DNA of 11,484 nucleotides from an uncultured Methanosarcinales archaeon (lineage in GTDB: Archaea > Nanobdellota > Nanobdellia > Woesearchaeales > CAZYIM01), in assembly GCA_964647565.1 (NCBI GenBank), contig CAZYIM010000056.1, positions 1 through 11,484 on the forward strand, given 5' to 3'. The notes below the pieces were generated by a model that saw only the letters and a list, made by a program, of their open reading frames with translations, was not told the DNA's origin and made no database searches. How positions within the stretch are numbered: position 1 is the stretch's first letter; the number at the start of each line of letters is the position of its first letter. The position numbers and the translations under genes were made by a program. Positions 2-11,484 of this stretch are shown piece by piece.

Positions 2-514
2 TATATTAAGCAGAACGATACTAATGATCAAGTATATACTTATCGCTTTGTAGATATTCCGAATTTTCCACAGATTGAGTTTGCAGAAATAACTCTGCCC
101 ATTGTCAATAATGAATATGAAAAAGGCCTTAGAAATGGTCTGGAAAACGGTCTGACCAGATATCTAAGAGCTGCAAAACTAGTTAAAATCTGGAAACCCC
201 TGCAAGAATATGGGCCTGATTTGTTCAATATCCTAATATATTTCCAAGCCCCTAAAAAGACCCAGGTTCGGCATGGCCTTTATATTCCTTTGATTGCAGA
301 TGATAGCAAGGTTCCTGAAGAAAAAAGGAACAATTTCTGGCATATCTTCTACGCTAAGTTCTTCAAAGAGAATGCCAAATCAGAGCTCTATTATCATGAA
401 ACTATAGATAGGACGCTGCTCAATTGTCATGGTCATTCCCTCTGTACTCCTGACCTGCATTTCAAGGGTTGTTTTGAGGATGCAATTCAAAAATATGGAG
501 GTCGAGAGCAATGA
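2..514 (+). CDS. Array paralog 1 (5'-truncated), hypothetical protein
   Basis: The frame of the 221..514 ORF is open back to position 2 (YIKQNDTNDQVYTYRFVDIPNFPQIEFAEITLP...KIWKPLQEYGPDLFNILIYF...GLYIPL...FWHIFYAK...AIQKYGGREQ*). It carries the family's core and C-terminal motifs, so TTG 221 is not the true start. Confidence 0.9.
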   Translation, partial: YIKQNDTNDQVYTYRFVDIPNFPQIEFAEITLPIVNNEYEKGLRNGLENGLTRYLRAAKLVKIWKPLQEYGPDLFNILIYFQAPKKTQVRHGLYIPLIADDSKVPEEKRNNFWHIFYAKFFKENAKSELYYHETIDRTLLNCHGHSLCTPDLHFKGCFEDAIQKYGGREQ

Positions 515-1326
515 GCGAGTTGATTGAAGCTGGTCCTGGAAAGATAAAGAAAAGGCCTAAGCAGCCTCCTTTCAAAACCCTTGTAGGCAGCGAGCTCAAC
601 CCGTTTGATATTGTTAATCCATTCAATACAAAATATAAATTCACTAAAGAGCTGGTTAAACTAAGAGAAGGTGAGTTGTTTGACTATCAGAGTATCAGGA
701 ATTCTGACTCTTTTGACAAGCTAGTGGAGGAATGTATGTTGCATGTTAATCCCTGTAGGTTTGCAAAGGAGTATTTCCTTGGAGATAAAGGATCTATCAA
801 TAAAGGATACGATAGTGACAGGTACACCATTGTTGATCCGAAAAGATTCCCTGGGGTGGTATGGGTAAGATTTGACATGCCTGTCGAACCTGATAGGAAG
901 AGCAGCATATATCATAAACCGCCAGAGCACTACAAGTATTTTATGAAATCTGAAGAGCTGATAAAATACATGGGTGAGGGCAATGGTCCACACCCCCATC
1001 ATTATTCTATGCAGGTCATCTTTGGCCAGGAGCCTGATAATGACCGTTATATGAGAGGTCTTTACATACCTCTAATGGTCGGCAACCATATCATGCCTGA
1101 TGAATGGCAGGGCAATCTGTGGTATATCTTTTCGACCAAGCACTATAATACCAAGCCAGTCAAGACAGAGCTGTTCTATTATCGATTGCAGGGAGGAATT
1201 GGATTTAACAAGCTGGGCAAAGAAGGTGGTGGAAGACCCACTATTTTTGCAGGGAAGACTCAAACTCATAAATTTTTCAAGAAAGGATTAGAAGATGCAA
1301 TTCAGGAATTAGGAGGGATAAGATGA
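511..1326 (+). CDS. Array paralog 2, hypothetical protein (271 aa)
   Basis: ATGA overlap with gene 1; GGAGGT at 497-502; motifs LIEAGPGKIKKR, NPF, GLYIPLM, LWYIF, AIQELGGIR. Confidence 0.92.
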   Translation: MSELIEAGPGKIKKRPKQPPFKTLVGSELNPFDIVNPFNTKYKFTKELVKLREGELFDYQSIRNSDSFDKLVEECMLHVNPCRFAKEYFLGDKGSINKGYDSDRYTIVDPKRFPGVVWVRFDMPVEPDRKSSIYHKPPEHYKYFMKSEELIKYMGEGNGPHPHHYSMQVIFGQEPDNDRYMRGLYIPLMVGNHIMPDEWQGNLWYIFSTKHYNTKPVKTELFYYRLQGGIGFNKLGKEGGGRPTIFAGKTQTHKFFKKGLEDAIQELGGIR

Positions 1327-2036
1327 CTGAAAAAGATGATATAATCGAGAATCATGAACCTGGCAAAAAGCCGAGGAGGAAGCTGAAGGCAGAGGAGAAA
1401 CAAAAAACTCTATGTCCTTTCTTGCAAGAGGGATTTAAGTGTATGTTTGATCCGAAATGGATTGATATGACTGTAAGGAGAATAACTAACGGTAAAAGTA
1501 AAGGATATTTTGGTTCGAATGACGTTCAAAATTGGCATGATGTTGCAAGTTTCCATTATGATGTTGTTGGGACTGGTAGATTGCTTGTTGATCTTGTCAA
1601 ACCCTATGATACCCAACAAAGGGACCATATAGAAATAAATAATCCTGATCATCTAGAGAAATATGTTTTTATAAATCATAGTAAAAGTTATCTTGCAAGG
1701 ATTTTTGAGCCAGAAATGCCTGATAATTTTTTTGCGTTCTCTAATGATGATATAAATAAGACAATCGAAGATTTTCAAAGATCAGAAACATCCGGGCTGA
1801 CCTTAATTGCTCTGGATGAGTTCTACCATTGTCAAAACAAAGCATGGCACGTACCATTTTTTCGGGATGATGATACTGTGCCTGAGCGTCTGCAGAATAA
1901 ACCAGGACATATCATAACCCTGAGCTACCTGCCAGAAGACAAAACTCTGAATGTGGATGATGTGCAACAATACGACCGGGACAAACTGCTTGGAGTGCTG
2001 CGTGAGACACTTGGGCTACCTGGTGAAAAAAAATAA
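1323..2036 (+). CDS. Array paralog 3, divergent 'IIEN/PRRKLK' subtype (237 aa)
   Basis: ATGA overlap; AGGAGG at 1311-1316. N-terminus MTEKDDIIENHEPGKKPRRKLK, and WHDVASFH and LIALD motifs, match genes 14/15. Confidence 0.9.
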   Translation: MTEKDDIIENHEPGKKPRRKLKAEEKQKTLCPFLQEGFKCMFDPKWIDMTVRRITNGKSKGYFGSNDVQNWHDVASFHYDVVGTGRLLVDLVKPYDTQQRDHIEINNPDHLEKYVFINHSKSYLARIFEPEMPDNFFAFSNDDINKTIEDFQRSETSGLTLIALDEFYHCQNKAWHVPFFRDDDTVPERLQNKPGHIITLSYLPEDKTLNVDDVQQYDRDKLLGVLRETLGLPGEKK

Positions 2037-2045
2037 AATAGATTT

Positions 2046-2071
2046 CCAATCAAGAATGAACCAATCAAGAA
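2046..2071 (+). repeat. Short direct repeat CCAATCAAGAA x2 at the only non-overlapping junction
   Basis: Copies at 2046-2056 and 2061-2071 bracket ATG 2056 and are followed by AAGAAAC repeats. Confidence 0.75.
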
Positions 2072-2853
2072 ACAAAGAAACAAGCCCGCTGATCGAAGCT
2101 GGAAGCGGTAAGATAAAGAAAAAGAGAAAGAACAAACCAGTGAAAACCTTCACCTCTGGCGATCGTATGATGCGAAATCCATATGAGATAGGAAGTGAAT
2201 ATCCTATTCGGCTTAAGAAAGTTCAAAAATCAGATGAAGTATTTTTTGGATCAATAGACAATAAATTCTATTTCAATCATCTTATCGAGCAAAATATTTG
2301 GTTGTTCAACCTGGAAATCATAGAAAAACTCTTTGATGCTTCAAAATATAAAAAAGTCAAGCATGATGATAATCCAACATATTATTTCTGTAATATCCCT
2401 GCTTTTCCTAATATTGAATTTGCTTCATTGTATATGCCCACCATTAGAGATGCAGATGAAAAACCGCATGATTCGTGGGATGAATCGCGGAAGAGAAAAG
2501 AGAAATTTTATTTTAAAACTCCAGATTTGGCTAAGTTATGGTATGTAATTGGTGGAGGAAGCTTTACACCCCATCTGCAGATATATTTTGAAACTTCTCC
2601 TAAGAGCAAAACCCGGAAAGGATTGTATGTTCCTATGATCCAAGGCGACTCAAAGACACCTGAAGAATCAGATGACTACCGCTGGAACATCTTCACATTG
2701 AAATTCTACAAGAAACCCAAGAAGTTCGAGATCTACAACTATGCTTCTTGTTCTAATACCTTTGACCAGCCTGCAGAACCAGGATGTGTAAGTCGAAAAT
2801 GCCTTGAGAAAGCATTGATACAAGGCATCAAGGAGGATGGTGGTATCAGATGA
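2056..2853 (+). CDS. Array paralog 4, hypothetical protein (~265 aa; start uncertain)
   Basis: Within the 1951..2853 ORF. ATG 2056 gives the family-typical length and puts LIEAGSGKIKKKRK near the N-terminus; in-frame GTG 2023 is an alternative. Motifs IPAFPNIE, GLYVPM, RWNIF, GIKEDGGIR. Confidence 0.85.
   Translation: MNQSRNKETSPLIEAGSGKIKKKRKNKPVKTFTSGDRMMRNPYEIGSEYPIRLKKVQKSDEVFFGSIDNKFYFNHLIEQNIWLFNLEIIEKLFDASKYKKVKHDDNPTYYFCNIPAFPNIEFASLYMPTIRDADEKPHDSWDESRKRKEKFYFKTPDLAKLWYVIGGGSFTPHLQIYFETSPKSKTRKGLYVPMIQGDSKTPEESDDYRWNIFTLKFYKKPKKFEIYNYASCSNTFDQPAEPGCVSRKCLEKALIQGIKEDGGIR
2089..2130 (+). repeat. 42-bp near-identical gene-start block, second copy at 4471-4512
   Basis: CTGATCGAAGCTGGAAG(C/T)GG(T/C)AAGATAAAGAAAAAGAGAAAG, 40/42 identical between genes 4 and 7. 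Confidence 0.9.
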
Positions 2854-3671
2854 ATATTATCAATGCTGGATCTGGAAAGATCAAGAAAAAGAGAAAGAAA
2901 CAGCTGTTAAATACCTATCATGGAAATTCTGTTGGTGGCAGCCCATTTGATAGTTATTACACTGAGAAATTATCTTATTTGAGGAATTCTAAACACATAC
3001 TAGAGCAAGGTGATATTGAGAATGCAGAATTCTTCCAGAGTCTGATTGGGCAGGACGCCTGGTTGTTTGATCCTCTCTTCGTTGAGAGATATTTTCTGGG
3101 CGCAAAACTAGTATTAAAAACAGATAATGAAGAACCCAAGGATTCAGAATATTATATGGAAGATATTCCTGAGTTCCCGAATATAGAGCTGGCCATTCTT
3201 AACCTTCCTAAAGTATGGGACTCTATTGAAGATAATGAGAACTATGAATACAATAAATCCCTGTACAGATATACCCAGAGCTGCATGAAGACACCTGACA
3301 TCATGAAGATATGGAGATCTACTCGTTATGGCGGAAGCGATTTTAGCCTGAAGATACATTTCAAGTCTGCTGAAAATAGTAATATCGGGAAGGCTGTCTA
3401 TGTTCCTGCTTTGCCTGGAAATGGTTATACGCATATAGACATGGATGCCAACCGCTGGAACATTCTTTCTATGGTCTATCATAAAAAACCTAAAAAGCAA
3501 GAAGTCTACAAGTATGCAACCTGTTCTAAGCATCACGAAAGCTATAAGCATCCTGACTGCGTGAAGCGAGAGTGCTTTGAAAAGACTCTTCTGCAGGCCA
3601 TCAAGGAGCAGGGAGGTTCTGAGCAACAAGTTGCTGGAACCTCGCCCGGAAAACTCGGAGGTATCAAATGA
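2850..3671 (+). CDS. Array paralog 5, hypothetical protein with 15-aa C-terminal extension (273 aa)
   Basis: ATGA overlap; motifs IINAGSGKIKKKRK, IPEFPNIE, AVYVPAL, RWNIL. Closest to gene 4 (KKPKK, C-x11-C-x4-C). Confidence 0.92.
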   Translation: MNIINAGSGKIKKKRKKQLLNTYHGNSVGGSPFDSYYTEKLSYLRNSKHILEQGDIENAEFFQSLIGQDAWLFDPLFVERYFLGAKLVLKTDNEEPKDSEYYMEDIPEFPNIELAILNLPKVWDSIEDNENYEYNKSLYRYTQSCMKTPDIMKIWRSTRYGGSDFSLKIHFKSAENSNIGKAVYVPALPGNGYTHIDMDANRWNILSMVYHKKPKKQEVYKYATCSKHHESYKHPDCVKRECFEKTLLQAIKEQGGSEQQVAGTSPGKLGGIK

Positions 3672-4465
3672 AGGTAATCAATGCAGGTTCTGGGAAGAAG
3701 AAAAAGAAGAAGAAACTCGAGTTAATCATAGAGATCACAGGTAATTATTTTGGCTTCAAAACGCCATTCGATGATATTAAGGAACATTTGAATACTATTG
3801 AAAGTTTTCGAGAGTCAACAAATGTTTTTAAACAGGGTACGATTAAGAATAAGGATAAGTATAAGAAAATAGCTGGCGAGCCAAATAAACCCTTTTTTCT
3901 TCTACAGCCAACTATTTTTGAGAAATTGTTTGAGGGTTCTAAATATAATAAAAGAGAGTATAAAAATTCAAATGTAATTGTGTATGAAATTGGTTCTATA
4001 CCGAATTTACCTCAGATTGAATATGCTTATCTATACCTTCCTACTTTTCAGGACAATATCAAATTTCCATATAAACGAAAGGGCGAAGCATTATTCAGAA
4101 GCCTTCAAAACCATATATCCCTTCCTGGACTATCAGGGATATGGAATGCGATTACTCAGGGGAGTCCAAACCACTTTAATCTTCAAGTATTCTTCAAGGC
4201 TGATAAAAAAGCACAGATCAGAGAAGGGCTCTATATTCCCTTGTTTTCAGGCGATATCAGGATCCCTGATAAAACCGTTGACAATAGCTGGCACATTTTC
4301 TATGCAAAATACTATGCAAAGGATCGAAAATCAGAATTGTATCTTTACGAGACTATCAATGGGCCGGTTGAAGATTGCTATCACGGCAATAAAATTTGTA
4401 CACCTCTAGATCATTTTGAATTTTGTTTTAAGGAAGCAGTGAAGAAGTATGGGGGCGCAAAGTGA
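3668..4465 (+). CDS. Array paralog 6, hypothetical protein (265 aa)
   Basis: ATGA overlap; GGAGGT at 3657-3662; motifs VINAGSGKKKKKKK, IPNLPQIE, GLYIPL, WHIFYAK, AVKKYGGAK. C-terminal half is closest to gene 1. Confidence 0.92.
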   Translation: MKVINAGSGKKKKKKKLELIIEITGNYFGFKTPFDDIKEHLNTIESFRESTNVFKQGTIKNKDKYKKIAGEPNKPFFLLQPTIFEKLFEGSKYNKREYKNSNVIVYEIGSIPNLPQIEYAYLYLPTFQDNIKFPYKRKGEALFRSLQNHISLPGLSGIWNAITQGSPNHFNLQVFFKADKKAQIREGLYIPLFSGDIRIPDKTVDNSWHIFYAKYYAKDRKSELYLYETINGPVEDCYHGNKICTPLDHFEFCFKEAVKKYGGAK

Positions 4466-5262
4466 AAAAACTGATCGAAGCTGGAAGTGGCAAGATAAAG
4501 AAAAAGAGAAAGATATCGCCAATATTTACTTCTAAAGGCAAGATTCCAGGTATGAAGAGTCCTTTTTCTAAAGAGCTCTTATATAGATCTCGTTTGGCGA
4601 GCGTGATGAGCAGCCAAGAAAGAATAAATGAAATCGGTTTTAGAGATGCAGAATTTTTAGAAAACTTGGCGAAAGACAGAATAATTTTCATAGATCCGAT
4701 CAAACCTGTTGAAGAGCTCTTTAAAGATGCTGTTTTTAAGGGATATACAGAATACACACATTTCAGATTTGAGATAGCAAAGATACCTTCTTTTCCACAA
4801 ATAGAGCTTGTAACATTAGGATTGCCAAGATACTTTGGAGCACACTCTTCCGATCAATCAGATAATCCTTTTGTTGAAGCAAATAGGGGTTTGTTAAAGT
4901 CAAAACATGTCTATAACATGTACCCTGCAATAAAAAATCGTAAATTAAATTTTTTAACCCTTAACATAATCTTCGAGCATGATGATGATAATCCTTCAAT
5001 CAGGAAGGGTCTTTTCATTCCTTTGATGAACGTGGACAAAAGGATCCCTGACAAAGACAAGGATAACTATTGGAACATCTACAAGGTCAGGCATTATGCA
5101 CAGCCAATAAAATCAGAGCTTTTCCCTTACATGCATTGTAATCATGATTTACTATATTGTAAAAATGGTACTTATGGACTACAGAAAAATATGTTGGCTT
5201 CGGATGACCAATTCCTTCATGCATTAGAAGAAGCCATTCTAGAATATGGAGGTAAGAAATGA
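4462..5262 (+). CDS. Array paralog 7, hypothetical protein (266 aa, GTG start)
   Basis: GTGA overlap; GGGGG at 4451-4455; motifs LIEAGSGKIKKKRK, IPSFPQIE, GLFIPLM, YWNIY, AILEYGGKK. Confidence 0.92.
   Translation: MKKLIEAGSGKIKKKRKISPIFTSKGKIPGMKSPFSKELLYRSRLASVMSSQERINEIGFRDAEFLENLAKDRIIFIDPIKPVEELFKDAVFKGYTEYTHFRFEIAKIPSFPQIELVTLGLPRYFGAHSSDQSDNPFVEANRGLLKSKHVYNMYPAIKNRKLNFLTLNIIFEHDDDNPSIRKGLFIPLMNVDKRIPDKDKDNYWNIYKVRHYAQPIKSELFPYMHCNHDLLYCKNGTYGLQKNMLASDDQFLHALEEAILEYGGKK
5248..5262 (+). promoter_or_regulatory. Representative SD plus ATGA translational-coupling junction (recurs at 14 junctions)
   Basis: GGAGGTAAGAAATGA. GGAGG/GGGGG/GGTGG/GGAG begins 10-14 nt (usually 11) before the next start at 497, 1312, 2839, 3657, 4451, 5248, 6042, 6839, 7651, 8436, 9197, 9965, 10702 and 11436. 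Confidence 0.85.
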
Positions 5263-6056
5263 GCAAACTGATCGAGGCTGGCCCTGGAAAGATAAAGAAA
5301 AAATTCAAAGATAAGACTCCAATCCACGAGATCCTTTATCACCAAGGTGGTTTCTTCAATCCGTTTACAGACATGGAAGGCTACTTAGAACGAATTGAGA
5401 AGGCAAGAACCTGTGGTGAAGAACCATTCAAACCAAAATATATTCAAGGAGTGGAGATATTCCAAAGGTCTTTTTTCTATTGGTTATGGATGATAGATCT
5501 AAAACCATTGGCAGAACTCTTCGAAGGTTCAAATTACAATTATTCAAAGCTGCCAATATCCGGTGATGAAAGAGGATTTCAGTACTTTTTTACTGATGTT
5601 CCAAAATATCCTGCGATCGAGTTAATGCAGATTACAATCCCTAAATTACAAGATGAGCTGATAATCGACAAGAATAAGAACACGACCTTTCAACAGGCAC
5701 TGCCTCAATATTTAACTAACAATAGGATGGTGCACATTTGGAATGCGCTTGAGGATTTGGGGCCGGATGCATTTAATATGCAGATCTTCTTCAAGACAGG
5801 AAAGGATAGCCAGGTCAAGGCCGGACTTTATGTACCTCTTGTGACGGGGGATCCATTAATACATGAAATTAACAGGGATTTTGACTGGCATATCTACAAT
5901 GTCAAGTTCTATGCAAATAGCAAGGCAGAAGTTTTCTATCATGATTATAATATCGGGCCTGTAGTAGGCTGCAAGAAGGTCAAGAAATGCGACCGCGACC
6001 AACATTTCTTCCACTCCTTAGATGATGCGATAATCAAGTACGGAGGCAGAAAATGA
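5259..6056 (+). CDS. Array paralog 8, hypothetical protein (265 aa)
   Basis: ATGA overlap; GGAGGT at 5248-5253; motifs LIEAGPGKIKKK, FNPF, YPAIELMQI, GLYVPL, WHIY, DQHFFHSLDDAIIKYGGRK. Confidence 0.92.
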   Translation: MSKLIEAGPGKIKKKFKDKTPIHEILYHQGGFFNPFTDMEGYLERIEKARTCGEEPFKPKYIQGVEIFQRSFFYWLWMIDLKPLAELFEGSNYNYSKLPISGDERGFQYFFTDVPKYPAIELMQITIPKLQDELIIDKNKNTTFQQALPQYLTNNRMVHIWNALEDLGPDAFNMQIFFKTGKDSQVKAGLYVPLVTGDPLIHEINRDFDWHIYNVKFYANSKAEVFYHDYNIGPVVGCKKVKKCDRDQHFFHSLDDAIIKYGGRK

Positions 6057-6853
6057 GCAAACTGATTGAAGCCGGACCTGGAAAGATAAAGAAGAAGAGG
6101 AAGACTAAAGCTCTTTATACTGTCCAGGATTGGTGGGCTGGTTTGTTTAACCCGTTTGAAAACTTAGAAGAGTATTATGATAACATAAATAATACAAAGA
6201 AAACAGAAGAAAAGGGATTTTCGTCAGACTACTTCAAAAATCTGGAATATTTTGAGCCTCTCTCACTCAATAGAGTCTGGATGATCTCACTTGCAAGAAT
6301 TGGAAAATTCTGTGAAGGTTCTGATTTTCATGACTCCCCAATAAAATTAATTGTAAATAGACTTATTGGACATGAATATTGTTTTTCAAACATTCCTTCT
6401 CATCCATCGATCGAGTTAATGCAAATCTCTGTTCCGGATGTTGATAATAAAATGAAGATTCCTAAGATGAATTCTACCTTTCAAAAAAGCTTGGAGCATT
6501 ATGTCCAGAATCCCAAATTGACCAAGATTTGGAAAGCTCTTCATGAATGGGGGCCGGGCAGGTTTAACATGCAGATATATTTCAAGTCTGATAAGAAGAG
6601 CAAGATCATAGAAGGGCTTTACATACCTCTGATGAAGGGAGATCCCAGGATACCTGAGCATAATAAGGGCAATCTCTGGCACATCTTCTATGTCAAGTTC
6701 ATGAGGAAGAAAGCAGAGATATACTATCATGATAATGGTGCTTTGGTTACCAACTGCCCTAAGGCCAGGAAGCGAGGACCTTATTGTAATCCTGATCAGC
6801 ATTTCTTCCACTCGCTAGGGGATGCGATAATCAAGTATGGAGGTCGAAAATGA
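6053..6853 (+). CDS. Array paralog 9, hypothetical protein (266 aa)
   Basis: ATGA overlap; GGAGG at 6042-6046. Sister of gene 8 (IELMQI, FNMQI, DQHFFHSLxDAIIKYGGRK). Confidence 0.92.
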   Translation: MSKLIEAGPGKIKKKRKTKALYTVQDWWAGLFNPFENLEEYYDNINNTKKTEEKGFSSDYFKNLEYFEPLSLNRVWMISLARIGKFCEGSDFHDSPIKLIVNRLIGHEYCFSNIPSHPSIELMQISVPDVDNKMKIPKMNSTFQKSLEHYVQNPKLTKIWKALHEWGPGRFNMQIYFKSDKKSKIIEGLYIPLMKGDPRIPEHNKGNLWHIFYVKFMRKKAEIYYHDNGALVTNCPKARKRGPYCNPDQHFFHSLGDAIIKYGGRK

Positions 6854-7665
6854 GTCTAGCACCACCATTCAAGTGGCCTCCTGTCCTACGTAGCAAGGGA
6901 ATAATACATAAGCCTGAATCCGGCAAGAAGAAGAAAATACCCAAAGTCTTGACGCCAAAGAACAGTAAAGTCCTTGCTGACTATATTAGGGATCTGGACT
7001 CATCGCCGCGTGGAAGCATATATCCTGAGAAAAAGTACGCTATAATGAGGGATATAGATAAAGAGGTTAGGCCCAGTTCCAGAGCGATTTTTTCTGGGTT
7101 TCCTGAATTCAAAAAAGGCAGCATAAAGGAGCATAAAAGGCTTAAACAGATGGCTGAAAAGACTCCTGAAATGTTGGATATTGTTCCCATAATAGAATCT
7201 GTATTTGCTGGCGTGCCTTACCATAGGATGGAGCGTGATGATTTTGTACATTATTACCTGCTTGAAGATAAGAGATATCCTAACTTGTCTATGGCCAGGT
7301 TCACAACCTTAGACTTTAAATGGAGAAGAAAAAAAGCAAAAAACTCAACCCTTATCTCAAACTCTTCAGGCAATAAAGTTTACGCTAGTAACCAACTTAT
7401 TTCTACTGAAAAGATGACTTTTTACATTGCTTTTGATATGCTTCCAAGTGGGAAAAGGGAGTACACAGGTAATAACATACTGATTCCGACAAATACTCTG
7501 GATGGTAGAATACCTGGAGAAGTCAGGGATTACAGAGGCCATATGTTCCTTGTCTCCTGGTTCCAGGCCAACTCCCGGATGACATATCATTCTGCTTATC
7601 GAACAGAGTCTGGTCTTGAAAAAGGCTTGGTATCTGTGCTTGAGAAATACGGGGGTGGCAAATGA
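6850..7665 (+). CDS. Array paralog 10, divergent member with N-terminal extension (271 aa)
   Basis: ATGA overlap; GGAGGT at 6839-6844; IIHKPESGKKKKI, RYPNLSMAR, ILIPTNTLDGRIP, VLEKYGGGK are degenerate family motifs. Confidence 0.9.
   Translation: MSLAPPFKWPPVLRSKGIIHKPESGKKKKIPKVLTPKNSKVLADYIRDLDSSPRGSIYPEKKYAIMRDIDKEVRPSSRAIFSGFPEFKKGSIKEHKRLKQMAEKTPEMLDIVPIIESVFAGVPYHRMERDDFVHYYLLEDKRYPNLSMARFTTLDFKWRRKKAKNSTLISNSSGNKVYASNQLISTEKMTFYIAFDMLPSGKREYTGNNILIPTNTLDGRIPGEVRDYRGHMFLVSWFQANSRMTYHSAYRTESGLEKGLVSVLEKYGGGK
6919..6938 (+). repeat. 20-bp exact direct repeat, second copy at 7746-7765
   Basis: TCCGGCAAGAAGAAGAAAAT in genes 10 and 11. Their 3' ends also share GGGGGTGGCAAATGA (7651-7665, 8436-8450). 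Confidence 0.88.
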
Positions 7666-8450
7666 CAATAATATCCCAAAAAGCCTATCAAGACGGATTT
7701 AATAAGGTTAGTCCGGATCCCAATATAATAGTCCATGAACCCAGCTCCGGCAAGAAGAAGAAAATCAAGAAGTCCAGAATTATATATGGAGAGATCATGG
7801 ATAAATACAAGAGGGTATTGACTGGCACTGGCCAGGGATTCCTCAATCCTTATCTTGAAAAGGATTTGATCTATGATTTGGTCCGTGAGATTCCGAAAAC
7901 AGGCAATGTCTTGGAAAAAGGATCGATTGAAGAGAGCCCTTTTTATGCAGCCCTGGCAAAAAGAAGACAGCTGGCTTCTCTGTGTGAAGTCTGTGAGAAT
8001 ATGTTTTTGGGGGCCAGCTATAAAAAAACAGAGACCAATGAGGCCCTTGAGTACTGTTTTACCGATGTGCCTAGATTCCCCCAGGTCAGGATTGCAAGAT
8101 TGAATCTTTTCAAGATTGCTGACTTCCAGGAAACATGGCCTGCTCTTGCAGAGACTGATTTTGTGTCCCAGTGGCAGGTCCTTAAGTTCTCCCAGGATAA
8201 TTTCACACTTAATATCCTGTTAAAGGGTAAAATGAGAGAAGGCCTGCTAATCCCCCTGGCAAGGTATGACACTCGAATACCTAGTGAGACCAAAAGCGAA
8301 TATAGTCATGTCTTCAACTACAGGTTCTATCCAGGATCAGAACACAAACCGCCCAGGATGATCCTAAGATATCATGATGTCTGTAGTTCGAGAGGCTCGC
8401 TTGAGGCAGGCATACAAAGAGCAATAATCAAGTATGGGGGTGGCAAATGA
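7662..8450 (+). CDS. Array paralog 11, with N-terminal extension (262 aa)
   Basis: ATGA overlap; motifs IIVHEPSSGKKKKI, LNPY, VPRFPQVRIAR, GLLIPLARYDTRIP, AIIKYGGGK. Confidence 0.92.
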   Translation: MTIISQKAYQDGFNKVSPDPNIIVHEPSSGKKKKIKKSRIIYGEIMDKYKRVLTGTGQGFLNPYLEKDLIYDLVREIPKTGNVLEKGSIEESPFYAALAKRRQLASLCEVCENMFLGASYKKTETNEALEYCFTDVPRFPQVRIARLNLFKIADFQETWPALAETDFVSQWQVLKFSQDNFTLNILLKGKMREGLLIPLARYDTRIPSETKSEYSHVFNYRFYPGSEHKPPRMILRYHDVCSSRGSLEAGIQRAIIKYGGGK

Positions 8451-9211
8451 ATCTGATTGAAGCTGGCCCTGGAAGGAGAAAACGCTGGAAGACGATAAAT
8501 AAGGTGAATTTGAATGGCAAGGAGGTTGCTGTTGCAGATTATAATGGCAACATGATCTGGTATAATGTCTTTAGTGATGAGACCTTCCGTATTCATGATA
8601 ATCTTATAAAGGGATTCAAGAAAAACCTGGAAAAAGATAAACAGTGGCTTTTAGCAGATGACCAGATACAGATGAATTCTACTGTCCTAGCTTGTGCCAA
8701 GAAAGAACCCAACAGCATTCTTCGATTAGATGCGCTTGCTAATGATGTTTTCAAAGACAGCGTCTATGTGGTACAGAGAGATACAATCGATGATGTTTAT
8801 TGTTTTTTTAATGTGCCTGATATGCCGCATGTTGATATGGCTCGTTTAAAAATTCCTTCAAATACAAAACCTGAATATGATTTTAAAGAAACATTCTTAG
8901 ATAAAGAAATTACTTATCGAGCAACGCGACAATCGTATTACCTGGAAATATTCTTCAAAAGGAAGCTAAAAAAACCACGTGAAATTCTTTTCATACCCCT
9001 GGACAGCTGTCATGAACTAGTTCCTGCAGAGCTGCAAAATAATGAATTCTGCATATTCTATAAGAGATATGATAAAGCTAAGGGGCTGGTTCCTGAGGAG
9101 TATCCCCACCCTACGATCTTCATTTCAATTGTAGGCTCATCGCACTTTCCAGAGAAAATGGGTCAACTGCTCAAGGATGTCATTGAGAAATATAATGGAG
9201 GCAGAACATGA
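8447..9211 (+). CDS. Array paralog 12, hypothetical protein (254 aa)
   Basis: ATGA overlap; motifs LIEAGPGRRKRWK, VPDMPHVDM, EIFFKR, LFIPL, NEFCIF, IEKYNGGRT. Confidence 0.92.
   Translation: MNLIEAGPGRRKRWKTINKVNLNGKEVAVADYNGNMIWYNVFSDETFRIHDNLIKGFKKNLEKDKQWLLADDQIQMNSTVLACAKKEPNSILRLDALANDVFKDSVYVVQRDTIDDVYCFFNVPDMPHVDMARLKIPSNTKPEYDFKETFLDKEITYRATRQSYYLEIFFKRKLKKPREILFIPLDSCHELVPAELQNNEFCIFYKRYDKAKGLVPEEYPHPTIFISIVGSSHFPEKMGQLLKDVIEKYNGGRT
8459..8492 (+). repeat. 34-bp exact direct repeat, second copy at 9220-9253
   Basis: GAAGCTGGCCCTGGAAGGAGAAAACGCTGGAAGA at the 5' ends of genes 12 and 13. Confidence 0.92.
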
Positions 9212-9978
9212 ATATTATCGAAGCTGGCCCTGGAAGGAGAAAACGCTGGAAGAAGATAACTCATGTTAATCTGGGGAATTCTAAAGTTAGTGTCAACTCA
9301 TTTAATGACAGCAGGATTTTCAATGAAGCTCTTGCTTTTGAACTTGTTGAATATCATGACAAGCTCATATCAGGTGGTAAAAATCACATTAGGAGACAAG
9401 GAAAGATTCTTGAACCAGCTAGTCAGATAAATCTGCATCCGACTGTTAAACCTTTGGTTGATCATGAATACCGTACCATATTGCCTTTAGATGAAATAGC
9501 AAAGCAAGTTTTCCAGAATGGCTACTTTGTTGAATCATATCATGTCATAAGTTCAGATTATTCTATCTATAAGATACCTGGGATGAAGCGTGTTGACATG
9601 GTTCATGTCAGCCTTCCATCTCATCGGGAGAAAGAGTATCCTTTTGATAACCTTTTTGGTCCTGAAAACTGTTTGGAGAAAGAGAAGAAAATAAGAGACT
9701 CATTCCACATGGAGATATTCTTCAAAAGAGGGCCAAAAAAATACAGGGAAAGCCTCTACATACCTTTGAGTTACTACCACAATCACATTCCTGTGCCTAT
9801 GAAAGGAAATGAATTCTGCATATTCCACAGGAAATATGAGAAATCATATGCATGCAAGAGTGGGGATGAGTATTACCTATCTGTAGTTCAATTCTCAATT
9901 GTGAATTCAACTCACTATCCAGAAAAGATAGGACCGATGCTAAAGGCTGCAATTAATGATTATAGGAGGGAAAAATGA
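9208..9978 (+). CDS. Array paralog 13, hypothetical protein (256 aa)
   Basis: ATGA overlap; GGAGG at 9197-9201. Sister of gene 12 (IEAGPGRRKRWK, EIFFKR, LYIPL, NEFCIF, SIVxSxH(F/Y)PEK). Confidence 0.92.
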   Translation: MNIIEAGPGRRKRWKKITHVNLGNSKVSVNSFNDSRIFNEALAFELVEYHDKLISGGKNHIRRQGKILEPASQINLHPTVKPLVDHEYRTILPLDEIAKQVFQNGYFVESYHVISSDYSIYKIPGMKRVDMVHVSLPSHREKEYPFDNLFGPENCLEKEKKIRDSFHMEIFFKRGPKKYRESLYIPLSYYHNHIPVPMKGNEFCIFHRKYEKSYACKSGDEYYLSVVQFSIVNSTHYPEKIGPMLKAAINDYRREK

Positions 9979-10718
9979 CTGATAAAGACAATATTATTGA
10001 GAATACTACATCTGGCAGGAAGCCGAGGAGGAAGCTAAAGGATAGAACAAAGGGACAGCCCAATTTTTTTGATATATTCCAAACTACAGGTGAAGGTCAT
10101 CTTAAAGCATTGTTCAATAAAGAGGATATTAGCATGACAAGGAAACGGATTGAGCATGATAATGATGGAACATTTGATTTAGGCATACTTGACGTGCAAT
10201 GGCATAAAGTTTCTTTATTCCATGACGCGATAGTGCCTATCGATACTTTTGCGAATAGTCTAGTATCTCGAGATTATGCTGGCGGCTATGATGTGAAATA
10301 CCTCAAGATTGTGGGGGGTTTAAGATGTGAGTATTATTTTATGGCACCTCAAAAAACGTTTGGCGACGTATTGGTTAAATTGTCTGTGCCAAAAGCAGGT
10401 AAGGATTTTCGCAATTCCAGCAATCTTGCCATAAACAGTTTTATCAAGGATTTAAACGAGAAAAATGGCCAACATAATCTGGCAATGGTGGCTCTGGATC
10501 AAGATAATACGCCACGAAAAGGTCTCTACATCCCTATGCTTAGAACTGATAATAGATTGGATGATAATCTTAAATCTAAATTTGCTAATGTTTTTCTGAT
10601 GAAATATGATGCTAATGCAGAAGGAATTGATTATTTCCACCTAGACTCCTTGAAAAATGAAGAAGAAGCCAAAGCTTTTCTTAAAAATACCTTAAAAGAC
10701 TGGAGATATAAAAAATGA
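9975..10718 (+). CDS. Array paralog 14, 'IIEN/PRRK' subtype (247 aa)
   Basis: ATGA overlap; AGGAGG at 9964-9969; IIENTTSGRKPRRKLK. RKGLYIPMLRTDNRL links it to the main family. Confidence 0.92.
   Translation: MTDKDNIIENTTSGRKPRRKLKDRTKGQPNFFDIFQTTGEGHLKALFNKEDISMTRKRIEHDNDGTFDLGILDVQWHKVSLFHDAIVPIDTFANSLVSRDYAGGYDVKYLKIVGGLRCEYYFMAPQKTFGDVLVKLSVPKAGKDFRNSSNLAINSFIKDLNEKNGQHNLAMVALDQDNTPRKGLYIPMLRTDNRLDDNLKSKFANVFLMKYDANAEGIDYFHLDSLKNEEEAKAFLKNTLKDWRYKK
9990..10024 (+). repeat. 35-bp exact direct repeat, second copy at 10733-10767
   Basis: AATATTATTGAGAATACTACATCTGGCAGGAAGCC at the 5' ends of genes 14 and 15. Confidence 0.92.
10573..10612 (+). repeat. 40-bp near-identical block, second copy at 11307-11346
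   Basis: AATCTAAATTTGCTAATGTTTTTC(T/A)GATGAAATATGATGC, 39/40 identical between genes 14 and 15. Confidence 0.88.
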
Positions 10719-11452
10719 CTGAAGACGATCAAAATATTATTGAGAATACTACATCTGGCAGGAAGCCAAGAAGGAAGCCTAAGGATGTAACCAAGGGCGA
10801 ACCTGATTTTCACGATCTGTTTCAGATTTCAGGGCAGGATCACCTTCAGGTATTGTTCGATAAAGATGATATTAGCATGACTAATCAACGACTTTACAAT
10901 GCTAATGATGGCGAGTTTAAATTAGAAGATCTTGAGGTGCAGTGGAATAAGATTGCATTATTCCATAAAGCAGTAGTTCCTATTGATAGATTTGTATTTC
11001 GCATGGTTGAATATGGGAGTCCTCCTTCCAGGTATCTTAAGATTTTAACTGATCAAAGATTAGAGTATTATCTCAAGCCGCCTTCAGATTATTATAGAGA
11101 TGTGATGGTGAAATTGTCGATGCCACAACATGGTGAGGATTTTCTAAATTCCAGTAACAAATATATCAACGAGTATATCGAAGGATTATCTGGAAAAGCA
11201 GCTCAATTCAATCTAGCTATTGTACCCTTAAATGGCAATACTCCGCAACGTAAAGGTCTTTATATCCCTATGATGAGGACAGATTCAAGACTAGAGCAAG
11301 ATTTCCAATCTAAATTTGCTAATGTTTTTCAGATGAAATATGATGCAAGGGAAGAAGGGATAGATTATTTTCATCTCAAATCCTTGAAGAACGAAATGGA
11401 TGTGATAAGATTTATTCAAAATACGTTGCAAAAATGGAGAAATAAAAAATGA
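10715..11452 (+). CDS. Array paralog 15, 'IIEN/PRRK' subtype (245 aa)
   Basis: ATGA overlap. Close sister of gene 14 along its length (SKFANVFxMKYDAxxEGIDYFHLxSLKNE). Confidence 0.92.
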   Translation: MTEDDQNIIENTTSGRKPRRKPKDVTKGEPDFHDLFQISGQDHLQVLFDKDDISMTNQRLYNANDGEFKLEDLEVQWNKIALFHKAVVPIDRFVFRMVEYGSPPSRYLKILTDQRLEYYLKPPSDYYRDVMVKLSMPQHGEDFLNSSNKYINEYIEGLSGKAAQFNLAIVPLNGNTPQRKGLYIPMMRTDSRLEQDFQSKFANVFQMKYDAREEGIDYFHLKSLKNEMDVIRFIQNTLQKWRNKK

Positions 11453-11484
11453 CTGATAATGATAATAAAGATATTATTGAGAGT
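11449..11484 (+). CDS. Array paralog 16 (3'-truncated)
   Basis: ATGA overlap with the gene 15 stop; reads MTDNDNKDIIES, matching MTDKDNIIEN of genes 14/15. Confidence 0.8.
   Translation, partial: MTDNDNKDIIES

Follow-up and report, generated by a model that had tools for sequence, protein, structure and literature searches.

Several described systems combine many paralogs with a conserved N-terminus or a tandem gene order. The RxLR proteins of oomycetes and the PEXEL proteins of Plasmodium form sets of at least 100 paralogs in which a short N-terminal motif is the best-kept part and the sequence is strongly diverged on one fold. In mycobacteria, the PE/PPE families number more than 100 paralogs and occupy several per cent of a small genome; a conserved N-terminal module leads them to one export machine. 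Tandem rows are found in the poly-immunity loci of polymorphic toxin systems, where small soluble proteins are encoded on the same strand, and in the staphylococcal tandem lipoproteins (Lpl, DUF576), which are divergent paralogs of about 260 aa. The former mix many families and lie beside toxins, toxin cassettes or recombinases; the latter, with about ten copies, have a signal peptide that ends in a lipobox. We analysed a locus of an uncultured, small-celled, marine DPANN archaeon. The DPANN have very small genomes and are thought to live on other cells.

The window (the whole stretch of 11,484 nucleotides that was analysed) is the complete contig C56 of a DPANN-type archaeal genome bin. An earlier note, made from its letters alone, had described a tandem array of at least 16 paralogs on one strand, with a period of about 715-820 bp and no obvious pseudogene. 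This description holds: the window contains 14 complete and two cut paralogs on the plus strand (Table 1), the complete ORFs encode 237-273 aa each, the gene-to-gene period is 714-822 nt, and none of the copies is broken. For one gene we chose the ATG at 2056 as the start (the first in-frame ATG is at 1951). The 14 proteins align over their full length with 13-28% identity to the first one, and the motifs that had been picked out by eye (PxFPxIE, GLYIPL..D.RIP, WHIF and AIxxYGG) are all present in the alignment.

Table 1. Genes and an example junction in the window (contig C56).
Feature	Position	Strand	Details
Cut paralog, 3' part, 170 aa	2..514	+	Profile match E 2.4e-41, profile positions 95-249
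Paralog, 271 aa, tail MSELIEAGPGKIKKRPK	511..1326	+	ATGA overlap at both ends
Paralog, 237 aa, second tail type MTEKDDIIENHEPGKKPRRK, stop TAA	1323..2036	+	
Paralog, 265 aa, start ATG 19 nt past the preceding stop	2056..2853	+	Cys residues in the C-terminal insert
Paralog, 273 aa	2850..3671	+	
Paralog, 265 aa	3668..4465	+	
Paralog, 266 aa, GTG start within GTGA overlap	4462..5262	+	
Paralog, 265 aa	5259..6056	+	
Paralog, 266 aa, modelled copy	6053..6853	+	pLDDT 90.2, pTM 0.88
Paralog, 271 aa, tail motif 16 residues inward of the N-terminus	6850..7665	+	
Paralog, 262 aa, closest window copy to the outside relatives	7662..8450	+	
Paralog, 254 aa, tail variant IEAGPGRRKRWK	8447..9211	+	
Paralog, 256 aa, tail variant IEAGPGRRKRWK	9208..9978	+	
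Paralog, 247 aa, second tail type IIENTTSGRKPRRK	9975..10718	+	
Paralog, 245 aa, second tail type, modelled copy	10715..11452	+	pLDDT 86.6, pTM 0.83
Next (16th) paralog, first 12 codons MTDNDNKDIIES, cut by contig end	11449..11484	+	
Example junction module, KYGGRK end then tag codons MSKLIEAGPGKIKKKRK	6036..6118	+	

The array was expected to leave the window at both edges, and the family does go on in five further contig segments (C1, C14, C68, C69 and C36). Together, the six segments hold 111 family ORFs of at least 150 aa, all on the same strand, and all of their ORFs belong to this single family. Chance similarity is excluded because a profile built from the 14 proteins of the window recovers 106 of the 111 ORFs at E<=1e-3, and all of them in a second iteration. 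The whole array comprises about 114 genes in about 91 kb, or 3.4% of the assembly, and is to our knowledge far larger than the same-strand paralog arrays described in prokaryotes. A six-frame search of the whole genome gave 118 matching open frames, all 118 inside the six segments, and hence no family copies elsewhere. The four contigs that contain only the family were placed in this genome by binning, by the family copies on C1 and C36, and by bridging records: the public protein record P0043 spans the join between C69 and C36, and the public protein P0098 ends in the residues that open C68. The cut paralog at the start of the window probably completes a 91-aa N-terminal fragment at the end of C1. 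The array is flanked by housekeeping genes (a HAD hydrolase and a purM-like gene), and none of the toxin, recombinase, secretion or viral genes that the earlier note had thought worth looking for lies beside it.

Two of the systems described above were considered for the array and rejected. A poly-immunity locus of a polymorphic toxin system does not fit a single family that has no toxin, housekeeping flanks and no match to a known immunity family in Pfam (111 members) or PADLOC (seven window proteins). Tandem lipoproteins of the DUF576 type do not fit proteins that have neither a hydrophobic N-terminus nor a lipobox signal peptide and no Pfam match.

Neighbouring genes, all on one strand, are tightly coupled. 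Of the 13 junctions in the window, 12 are 4-nt ATGA or GTGA overlaps, and the remaining one is a TAA followed by a 19-nt spacer. Across the array (n=105), there are 58 overlaps of 4 nt, 34 other overlaps and 12 spacers of 0-38 nt, the longest being 38 nt when the broken copy is left aside. A Shine-Dalgarno-like 5-mer occurs at -18 to -4 of 54 out of 110 starts, versus 4.7% of 2000 random positions. The site sits in the final codons of the preceding gene: in the example junction of Table 1, GGAGG lies inside the codons of the C-terminal KYGGRK, 5-8 nt 5' of the ATGA overlap. The conserved C-terminal YGG is thus largely the Shine-Dalgarno site of the next gene. A TATA box (TTTATAAA) stands about 50 nt 5' of the first gene, and TATA-like octamers on the sense strand are sparse within the array (0.19 per kb vs 0.56 per kb elsewhere in the genome). 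These are indirect hints of co-transcription on one message, and the array, with its roughly 114 coupled genes, may be transcribed and translated as a unit.

The family had been called unrecognised, and we found no match to a characterised family in Pfam, NCBIfam, PHROGs or PADLOC. The Pfam scan of the 111 members gave one chance match (E 0.009), and PADLOC gave none for the seven window proteins scanned. A search of 1.84 billion representative proteins returned only about 14 distant outside relatives, which keep the body, differ in their N-termini and have no basic tail. Two of them could be seen in their genomic context and are single-copy. One outside relative, P0070, has a PADLOC Cas11a row at chance level (E 0.013). 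The proteins appear soluble, as previously proposed: the highest 19-residue hydropathy of each ORF has a median of 0.79, and only 1 of the 111 ORFs exceeds 1.6 in the 19-residue Kyte-Doolittle scan, which agrees with the reported lack of signal peptides, lipoboxes and transmembrane helices.

Two AlphaFold models from separate alignments (pLDDT 90 and 87; 17 sequences in the alignment of the 10715..11452 protein) show one alpha+beta fold with the same order of secondary-structure elements, as the proposal of one shared scaffold implied. The 6053..6853 protein was the query for the fold searches. Foldseek gave no row at E<=0.001 against the PDB for either model and no row against BFVD for the 6053..6853 model. 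The best VIA-wide rows have Z 4.3 (rmsd 4.9, 98 aligned) for the 6053..6853 model and Z 5.6 (rmsd 4.0, 114 aligned) for the 10715..11452 model; all best rows are below Z 6, and the tool gives 7-8 as the typical best chance Z. On these models, the family is best read as one previously unseen fold, confidently predicted and with no match above chance level in solved structures.

Several inhibitor and immunity proteins are among the best structural rows, all under the noise level of the tool: AcrIIA11 (Z 5.6, rmsd 4.0, 114 aligned), Rv3902c (Z 5.0, rmsd 3.0, 88 aligned), TriTu (Z 4.8, rmsd 4.4, 87 aligned) and PsiB (Z 4.8, rmsd 3.7, 103 aligned) for the 10715..11452 model, and TriTu (Z 3.3, rmsd 4.2, 85 aligned) and TipC2 (Foldseek prob 0.28) for the 6053..6853 model. 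Because immunity loci typically show small, soluble alpha+beta proteins in long arrays, the array might be an intracellular repertoire of inhibitors or immunity proteins, in which every copy neutralises its own toxin or viral protein within the archaeal cell. We regard this as improbable. The Z values of these rows stay below 6, against a typical chance best of 7-8, and no known immunity family was matched by the 111 members in Pfam or the seven window proteins in PADLOC. Moreover, the array is a single family; toxin genes, toxin cassettes, recombinases and mobile genes are absent from it and from its flanks, it has neither young copies nor turnover, and the conserved N-terminal tag described below is not known as a feature of immunity proteins.

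The coupling signals at the junctions would also suit subunits of one large homo- or hetero-oligomer with a stoichiometry set by translational coupling. The homodimer test of the modelled 6053-6850 protein scored 0.49 (runs 0.49, 0.52 and 0.02; best of three controls 0.01), with runs that share at least 2% of contacts and a partner pLDDT of at least 59. In the calibration, 20 of 30 solved one-chain pairs and 1 of 23 solved single chains reached the mark, counts that are only rough because our own alignment was used. The homodimer model supports binding without demonstrating it. It has about 400 contacts, and strand 91-98 pairs with strand 104-112 of the other chain; since the same strands form an intramolecular hairpin in the AlphaFold model, the interface may reflect a contact map that was swapped or wrongly assigned. 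One of the three runs failed, and a sequence divergence of 64-85% between copies is hard to square with a common interface. An oligomer of this kind seems very unlikely to us.

The copies differ widely in sequence: identity to the nearest paralog ranges from 22 to 66%, with 36% as the median, and there are no young duplicates or signs of copy turnover in the array. The 14 closest pairs have dN/dS of 0.10-0.46 and dS of 0.55-2.5, and dS is saturated in most pairs. Only one of about 114 copies is broken; the other 113 frames are open in DNA of 38% G+C. Four metagenome runs contain the window, without any variant. The copies are old and are best explained as selectively maintained. Here the earlier interpretation has to be divided. 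Soluble proteins on one scaffold, tightly coupled and of no known family, are what we find; a role in conflict or an arms race finds no support, given the lack of toxin flanks, young duplicates and metagenome variants and a dN/dS of 0.10-0.46.

The best-conserved part of the family is a tag, a lysine-rich polybasic peptide of 20 residues at the N-terminus. It consists of two hydrophobic residues, 3-5 further residues and the motif S-G-[KR]-[KI]-[KP]-[KR]-R-x-K, which a loose pattern finds in 98 and a strict one in 95 of the 111 ORFs. The mean entropy of residues 1-20 is 1.86 bits, versus 2.7-3.4 in 11 of 12 other segments. These N-termini are polar and basic. In the 10715..11452 model the tag is disordered (pLDDT 46-71); in the 6053..6853 model its pLDDT is 80-94, as if it lay against the body. 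An HMM built from 16 residues of the tag matched 112 array frames and, with marginal significance, three N-terminal sites of unrelated open frames outside the array (E 0.0017, 0.0096 and 0.03 among 11,151 frames), one of which has no ATG, GTG or TTG start. In hhalign comparisons with these frames, the tag alone aligns, over 17-20 residues. The tag may therefore be portable and also head two or three unrelated ORFs, a marginal result. A search of 200 further genomes of the order did not recover it (two chance-level matches, E around 0.01), so any partner of the tag would also be lineage-specific.

Codon usage in the motif is skewed relative to the body (ATC 64% vs 29%, GGA 81% vs 34%, AAG 68-84% vs 37%), and the 5' ends of paralogs have exact runs of 29-64 nt in common, so that the conservation of the tag lies partly in the DNA, and gene conversion or a constraint on translation starts contributes to it. 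Together with the C-terminal GG codons that serve as the Shine-Dalgarno site, this could point to a neutral or selfish amplification with no repertoire function, whose ends are preserved solely through gene conversion and the requirements of translation re-initiation. Such an origin appears highly improbable: dS is mostly saturated, yet nearly all frames are open and dN/dS is below 0.5; the tag codons show synonymous variation; and the tag sites on unrelated ORFs have no similarity to the array in the flanking DNA.

The basicity of the proteins is not restricted to the tag. Whole proteins have a median pI of 9.3 and their bodies one of 8.9, with a net charge of about +5 in residues 1-30 and about +5 in the remainder. 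A nucleic-acid-binding family fits this as well as a tag does: tail and body would contact DNA or RNA, and the preferred sequence or structure would vary from copy to copy. The tail variant SGRKPRRK resembles AT-hook-like basic arms. No AT-hook (PF02178) was matched by Pfam, however, the tails read SG[KR]K[KP][KR]R and have no G-R-P core, and no known domain of this kind was found in Pfam, NCBIfam or PDB sequences. The basic tail is also missing from the outside relatives, and the need for about 114 copies is hard to see. We therefore think nucleic-acid binding a rather unlikely role.

Our preferred, tentative reading is an old, lineage-specific and maintained repertoire: about 114 specificity variants, all of them soluble, basic alpha+beta proteins, that share an address tag. 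One chromosomal head-to-tail array would give long, translationally coupled messages. The tag would act as an address or docking peptide and direct all copies to a shared partner or location, whereas the target would differ from copy to copy, as set by the diverged body and above all by its two variable inserts. In what is most likely its concrete version, favoured by the DPANN lifestyle, the variants would be cargo of a common machine, delivered out of the cell or to a host cell in an effector-like manner. We identified no secretion or transfer machinery, partner or target for the array proteins, and we know of no polybasic export signal in archaea. A bolder version is unlikely on present data. 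The tag would then be a targeting signal of a new kind in archaea, and the array would be the first repertoire of effector-like proteins in a DPANN archaeon: more than 110 tagged proteins, made from a single giant coupled transcription unit and delivered to a partner cell, where each would have a different host component as its target.

This archaeon devotes 3.4% of its assembled DNA to a single orphan family, and the dealings of DPANN with their partner cells are largely obscure. A portable tag of 20 residues could mark a new route of sorting or docking in archaea. Even if the function proved mundane, the array would be a natural experiment on how far one fold can diverge (best-hit identity 22-66%) with nearly every copy intact.

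Compared with known systems, the array resembles RxLR and PEXEL proteins in its way of working only: in the number of paralogs, in the short conserved N-terminal motif, which is the best-conserved part and appears on two or three unrelated ORFs, and in one fold with a diverged body. Those proteins belong to eukaryotes, have a Sec signal peptide ahead of the motif and are encoded in dispersed clusters, whereas the array is archaeal, lacks a signal peptide, has a polybasic motif and forms a single head-to-tail coupled array, with export only putative. It shares with PE/PPE more than 100 paralogs, a similar share of the genome and a conserved N-terminal module; PE/PPE differ in having helical modules of 110-180 aa and dispersed genes, and the array family has no Pfam match to PE or PPE. 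Finally, the 4-nt stop/start overlaps with a Shine-Dalgarno site in the upstream gene are those of translationally coupled operons with termination-reinitiation at ATGA, but unlike ordinary operons of this type, the array runs through about 114 consecutive genes and 91 kb, all of one family.

The uninterrupted tandem array of at least 16 divergent paralogs proposed in the earlier note is confirmed. The plus strand of the window, which makes up all of contig C56, carries one ORF cut at its 5' end, 14 complete ORFs (237–273 aa) and 12 codons of a 16th gene. The 14 complete proteins align end to end, at 13–28% identity with the first of them, and the alignment recovers the core motifs that the same note had listed. 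Their junctions are 4-nt ATGA overlaps in 12 out of 13 cases (GTGA once); the remaining one consists of a TAA, 19 nt and the ATG at 2056. The G+C content of the window is uniform (36–41%), and neither Rfam families nor inverted repeats were found in it or in its flanks. Five ORFs (100–161 aa) lie inside paralogs, either antisense to them or in a different frame, and chance is their likeliest origin (see table).

The genome bin has 2.68 Mb in 86 contigs (86.9% complete, 1.85% contaminated), and the genomes listed from the same order have 0.6–2.1 Mb. Its contig C15 encodes a full-length archaeal SSU rRNA (1405 bits), and an archaeal LSU rRNA begins on it. The number of tRNA genes detected in the 2.68 Mb ranges from 8 (ARAGORN) to 10 (Rfam tRNA model), several of them 84–123 nt long; many tRNA genes of this genome may be split, intron-rich or unassembled. 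Runs from two studies of marine and seawater metagenomes contain the window, as identical low-depth pieces; the runs listed as containing it included none of RNA.

The array is about eight times the size of the window. Using a profile of the window proteins, we found the family on all 59.6 kb of contig C14, on the entire contigs C68 and C69, and at the start of C1 (4.25 kb) and of C36 (2.17 kb). ORF calling with a 150-aa minimum gave 111 ORFs, all on the same strand within a segment; 106 of them matched the window profile at E ≤ 1e-3 and all 111 in a second iteration. Searching the genome in all six frames returned 118 matching open frames, all within these six segments. C69 adjoins C36, as shown by the public protein record P0043 (315 aa), which aligns both with the last part of C69 (124 aa, 98.4%) and with the first part of C36 (197 aa, 100%). 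Another record, P0098, continues the gene truncated at the C14 end into the residues with which C68 begins. We infer the joins C1–C56, C56–C14 and C68–C69 from gene fragments that complement each other and from ends that are nearly identical. Provided that every join is right, the locus has 91,254 nt and about 114 genes, i.e., 3.4% of the assembly.

At its head, the array is preceded by a divergently transcribed gene for a HAD-type hydrolase, and at its tail a purM-like gene starts 22 nt after the last copy. The earlier note had proposed checking the flanks for linked genes of conflict or mobility; neither an integrase nor a toxin, secretion or viral gene adjoins the array. Genes with a MazE/AbrB-type domain lie near both ends (292 and 296 aa, unusually long for this type of domain), the one at the head beside a Fic-domain gene.

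Several signals bear on the expression of the array. A TTTATAAA box is found about 50 nt upstream of the ATG of the first gene, with GGGGAG and GAGGG after it. Across the 91-kb array, the sense strand has 0.19 TATA-like octamers per kb and the antisense strand 0.36, compared with 0.56 elsewhere in the genome. Of the 17 on the sense strand, 15 have a called start downstream, and only one of these 15 is within 100 nt upstream of that start. This scarcity looks like selection against internal promoters. The 105 junctions of the whole array comprise 58 overlaps of 4 nt, 34 other overlaps (the long ones partly due to taking the first in-frame start), 12 spacers of 0–38 nt and one of 161 nt. The latter separates the sole broken copy of the array, in which homology continues through one TAG and one TAA in frame, from the next called ORF. 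Of 110 starts, 54 have an SD-like 5-mer upstream, versus 4.7% of random positions. In the window, the codons for the conserved C-terminal YGG read TAT GGA GG, which places GGAGG 5–8 nt upstream of the next ATG, and only 26 of the 111 proteins have GG near their end. The kept C-terminus is therefore largely a ribosome-binding site, and we dropped a ubiquitin-like C-terminal GG on the same grounds. We also dropped a read-through polyprotein made by -1 slippage at A-AAA-TGA, because the slippery run is absent from many junctions and an SD followed by ATG fits re-initiation. Together, the TATA, SD and overlap signals suggest long polycistronic, coupled expression.

The family proteins show no transmembrane or signal segment. 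They are basic (median pI 9.3, or 8.9 without the N-terminal tail), and a set of nucleic-acid binders is one rival reading of the array. Pfam, PHROGs, NCBIfam and PADLOC gave no match above chance, the best sequence profile hit in the PDB was a partially covered dioxygenase that we take as chance (E 0.0017), and the best score in the ESM Atlas (0.84) was under its lead level. AlphaFold models were obtained for the window protein at 6053–6850 from the 111-sequence alignment (pLDDT 90.2, pTM 0.88) and for that at 10715–11449 from a separate alignment restricted to 17 sequences of the second tail type (pLDDT 86.6, pTM 0.83). In both models the chain runs from three helices through a three-stranded meander and a helical insert to four strands and a C-terminal helix. 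The predicted fold is therefore common to subfamilies that are 14% identical, and the single scaffold assumed in the earlier note is borne out by the agreement of the two models. Six paralogs of the window (2056–6853) have a second variable insert (residues ~226–246) with two or three Cys and often His, e.g., C-x10-12-C-x4-C, possibly a disulfide-closed loop or a small site for a metal.

Foldseek searches of the PDB and BFVD gave no match for the models at E ≤ 0.001. The best rows of the VIA-wide structural comparison had Z 4.3 (rmsd 4.9, 98 aligned) and Z 5.6 (AcrIIA11, rmsd 4.0, 114 aligned), against a chance level of 7–8 for this tool. Small inhibitor and immunity proteins are recurrent among these sub-chance rows, which is at most a lead for the rival reading of the array as an inhibitor or immunity set. 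Another rival makes the paralogs subunits of one assembly. The predicted homodimer passed the mark of the test (score 0.49 vs 0.01 for the best control), a mark reached by 20 of 30 true pairs and 1 of 23 single chains in a calibration that is only rough here because our own alignment was used. The runs had a contact agreement of at least 2% and a partner pLDDT of at least 59. We gave this result little weight because the interface copies an intramolecular hairpin.

The N-terminal tag (residues 1–20) is by far the best-conserved segment of the family, with an entropy of 1.86 bits versus 2.7–3.4 in 11 of the 12 other segments; the twelfth, the second insert, has 2.16 bits at 28% occupancy. The most gapped parts are the two inserts (residues 129–171 and 226–246). 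The tag has two hydrophobic residues, then 3–5 residues, then S-G-[KR]-[KI]-[KP]-[KR]-R-x-K, and comes in two flavours, AGSGK(K/I)KK and ENxxSG(R/K)KPRR. A 16-residue HMM of the tag matched 112 array frames and the N-termini of three otherwise unrelated open frames outside the array (see table), in which the tag alone aligns by hhalign. We discarded recent copying of junction DNA onto these three ORFs, since the DNA similarity is limited to 17–39 nt of the motif. A search of 200 other genomes of the order did not find the tag, save two matches at E ~0.01, the chance expectation. A nuclear-localisation signal was also dropped, this being an archaeon of a symbiont-type order with no sign of a eukaryotic host.

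Features of the array, its flanks and the tagged frames elsewhere in the genome
Feature	Location	Strand	Remark
Tagged unrelated frame (L063)	C7:4333-4998	-	tag HMM E 0.0017
Tagged unrelated frame (L061)	C1:57047-58321	+	tag HMM E 0.0096; 424-aa orphan, TTG start
Tagged unrelated frame (L062)	C2:70634-71221	-	tag HMM E 0.03; no ATG/GTG/TTG start
Broken copy	C14:51490-52320		
MazE/AbrB-type domain gene (L031)	C1:7855-9861		
MazE/AbrB-type domain gene (L032)	C36:4985-5875		
ORF within paralogs	window 3144-3629	-	
ORF within paralogs	window 3978-4409	+	
ORF within paralogs	window 4428-4757	-	
ORF within paralogs	window 6416-6811	-	
ORF within paralogs	window 7366-7668	-	

The conservation of the tag has a DNA-level component too. 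The codon choice of the motif is skewed, and 48% of the 20-mers common to paralogs fall around it, in a stretch that makes up 9% of the gene length, with exact runs of 29–64 nt. Because these runs are shared there, the contigs of four DNA runs break at the common 5' ends of the paralogs. A functionless amplification with homogenised ends is the rival to be weighed here. The 14 closest pairs of paralogs have dS of 0.55–2.5 and dN/dS of 0.10–0.46; synonymous distances in the array are mostly saturated. The identity of the best hit among paralogs has a median of 36% (22–66%); this hit is a neighbour in 43 of the 111 copies and at most three genes away in 66. No young copies were found in the array, where near-identical collapsed copies would escape a short-read bin, and the four DNA runs show no variants of the window, only identical low-depth contig pieces. 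The paralogs are an old, maintained set, not one in rapid turnover. An arms-race reading of the array is thereby weakened, given the lack of young copies, the one broken copy and the lack of variants.

An exhaustive profile search of 1.84 billion representatives returned 115 proteins. Among them, 96 match this genome across the greater part of their length with ≥98% identity, and P0043, P0055, P0107 and P0108 are near-identical partial or variant records. About 14 are distant outsiders (23–36% identity, E 1e-30 to 1e-6). We regard P0115 (1242 aa, E 3.4e-6) as probably spurious because its match consists of four short stretches on a repeat protein. The outsiders keep the core motifs H.NP, LF.GG.Y, IP..P.vE.A.L.LP, DLSLDI.LK, SLRIPL..D.RIP and GH.F.V.Y and differ in their N-termini: four (P0087, P0091, P0100, P0109) have a doubled Cys motif, GGIxPC ... 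GGIxPC, instead of the polybasic tag, and P0095 and P0104 have another motif in common, HD.CMRPL. The same domain thus carries lineage-specific heads.

Both outsiders read in genomic context are single-copy. These two loci, L059 (contig C16 of G292, another genome of the order) and L060, lie next to small winged-helix-like ORFs, followed in L059 by an ORF resembling an integrase N-terminus (all read by eye). In the tree, the outsiders cluster together with two label changes (a long branch accounts for one), a pattern that fits a single expansion in this lineage. None of 40 relatives and none of 400 other genomes sampled for the phylum had a match; among 400 other genomes from the order, only G292 did (single copy, E 9e-12). 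Scans of IMG/VR and GTDB contigs with a four-protein alignment had no matches, a metagenome scan had one single-copy locus, and a word-indexed protein search gave no proteins beyond this genome's own.

Our favoured reading, held tentatively, is that the array is an address-tagged repertoire. The N-terminal peptide would be an address or docking tag on every copy, read as such because it is short, disordered, portable, lineage-specific and better kept than the fold behind it. The body would provide specificity variants on one fold, because only structural residues are kept and the two inserts vary. The most interesting concrete form of this repertoire would have the tagged proteins delivered to a partner cell, and we consider it unlikely. 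A full-text search of the literature gave no description of this family or array. Eukaryotic parasites and mycobacteria already provide examples of tandem multigene repertoires whose members share a conserved N-terminal signal. New here, as far as our searches reach, are the family, its fold and tag, the archaeal host, and the array's scale and layout.
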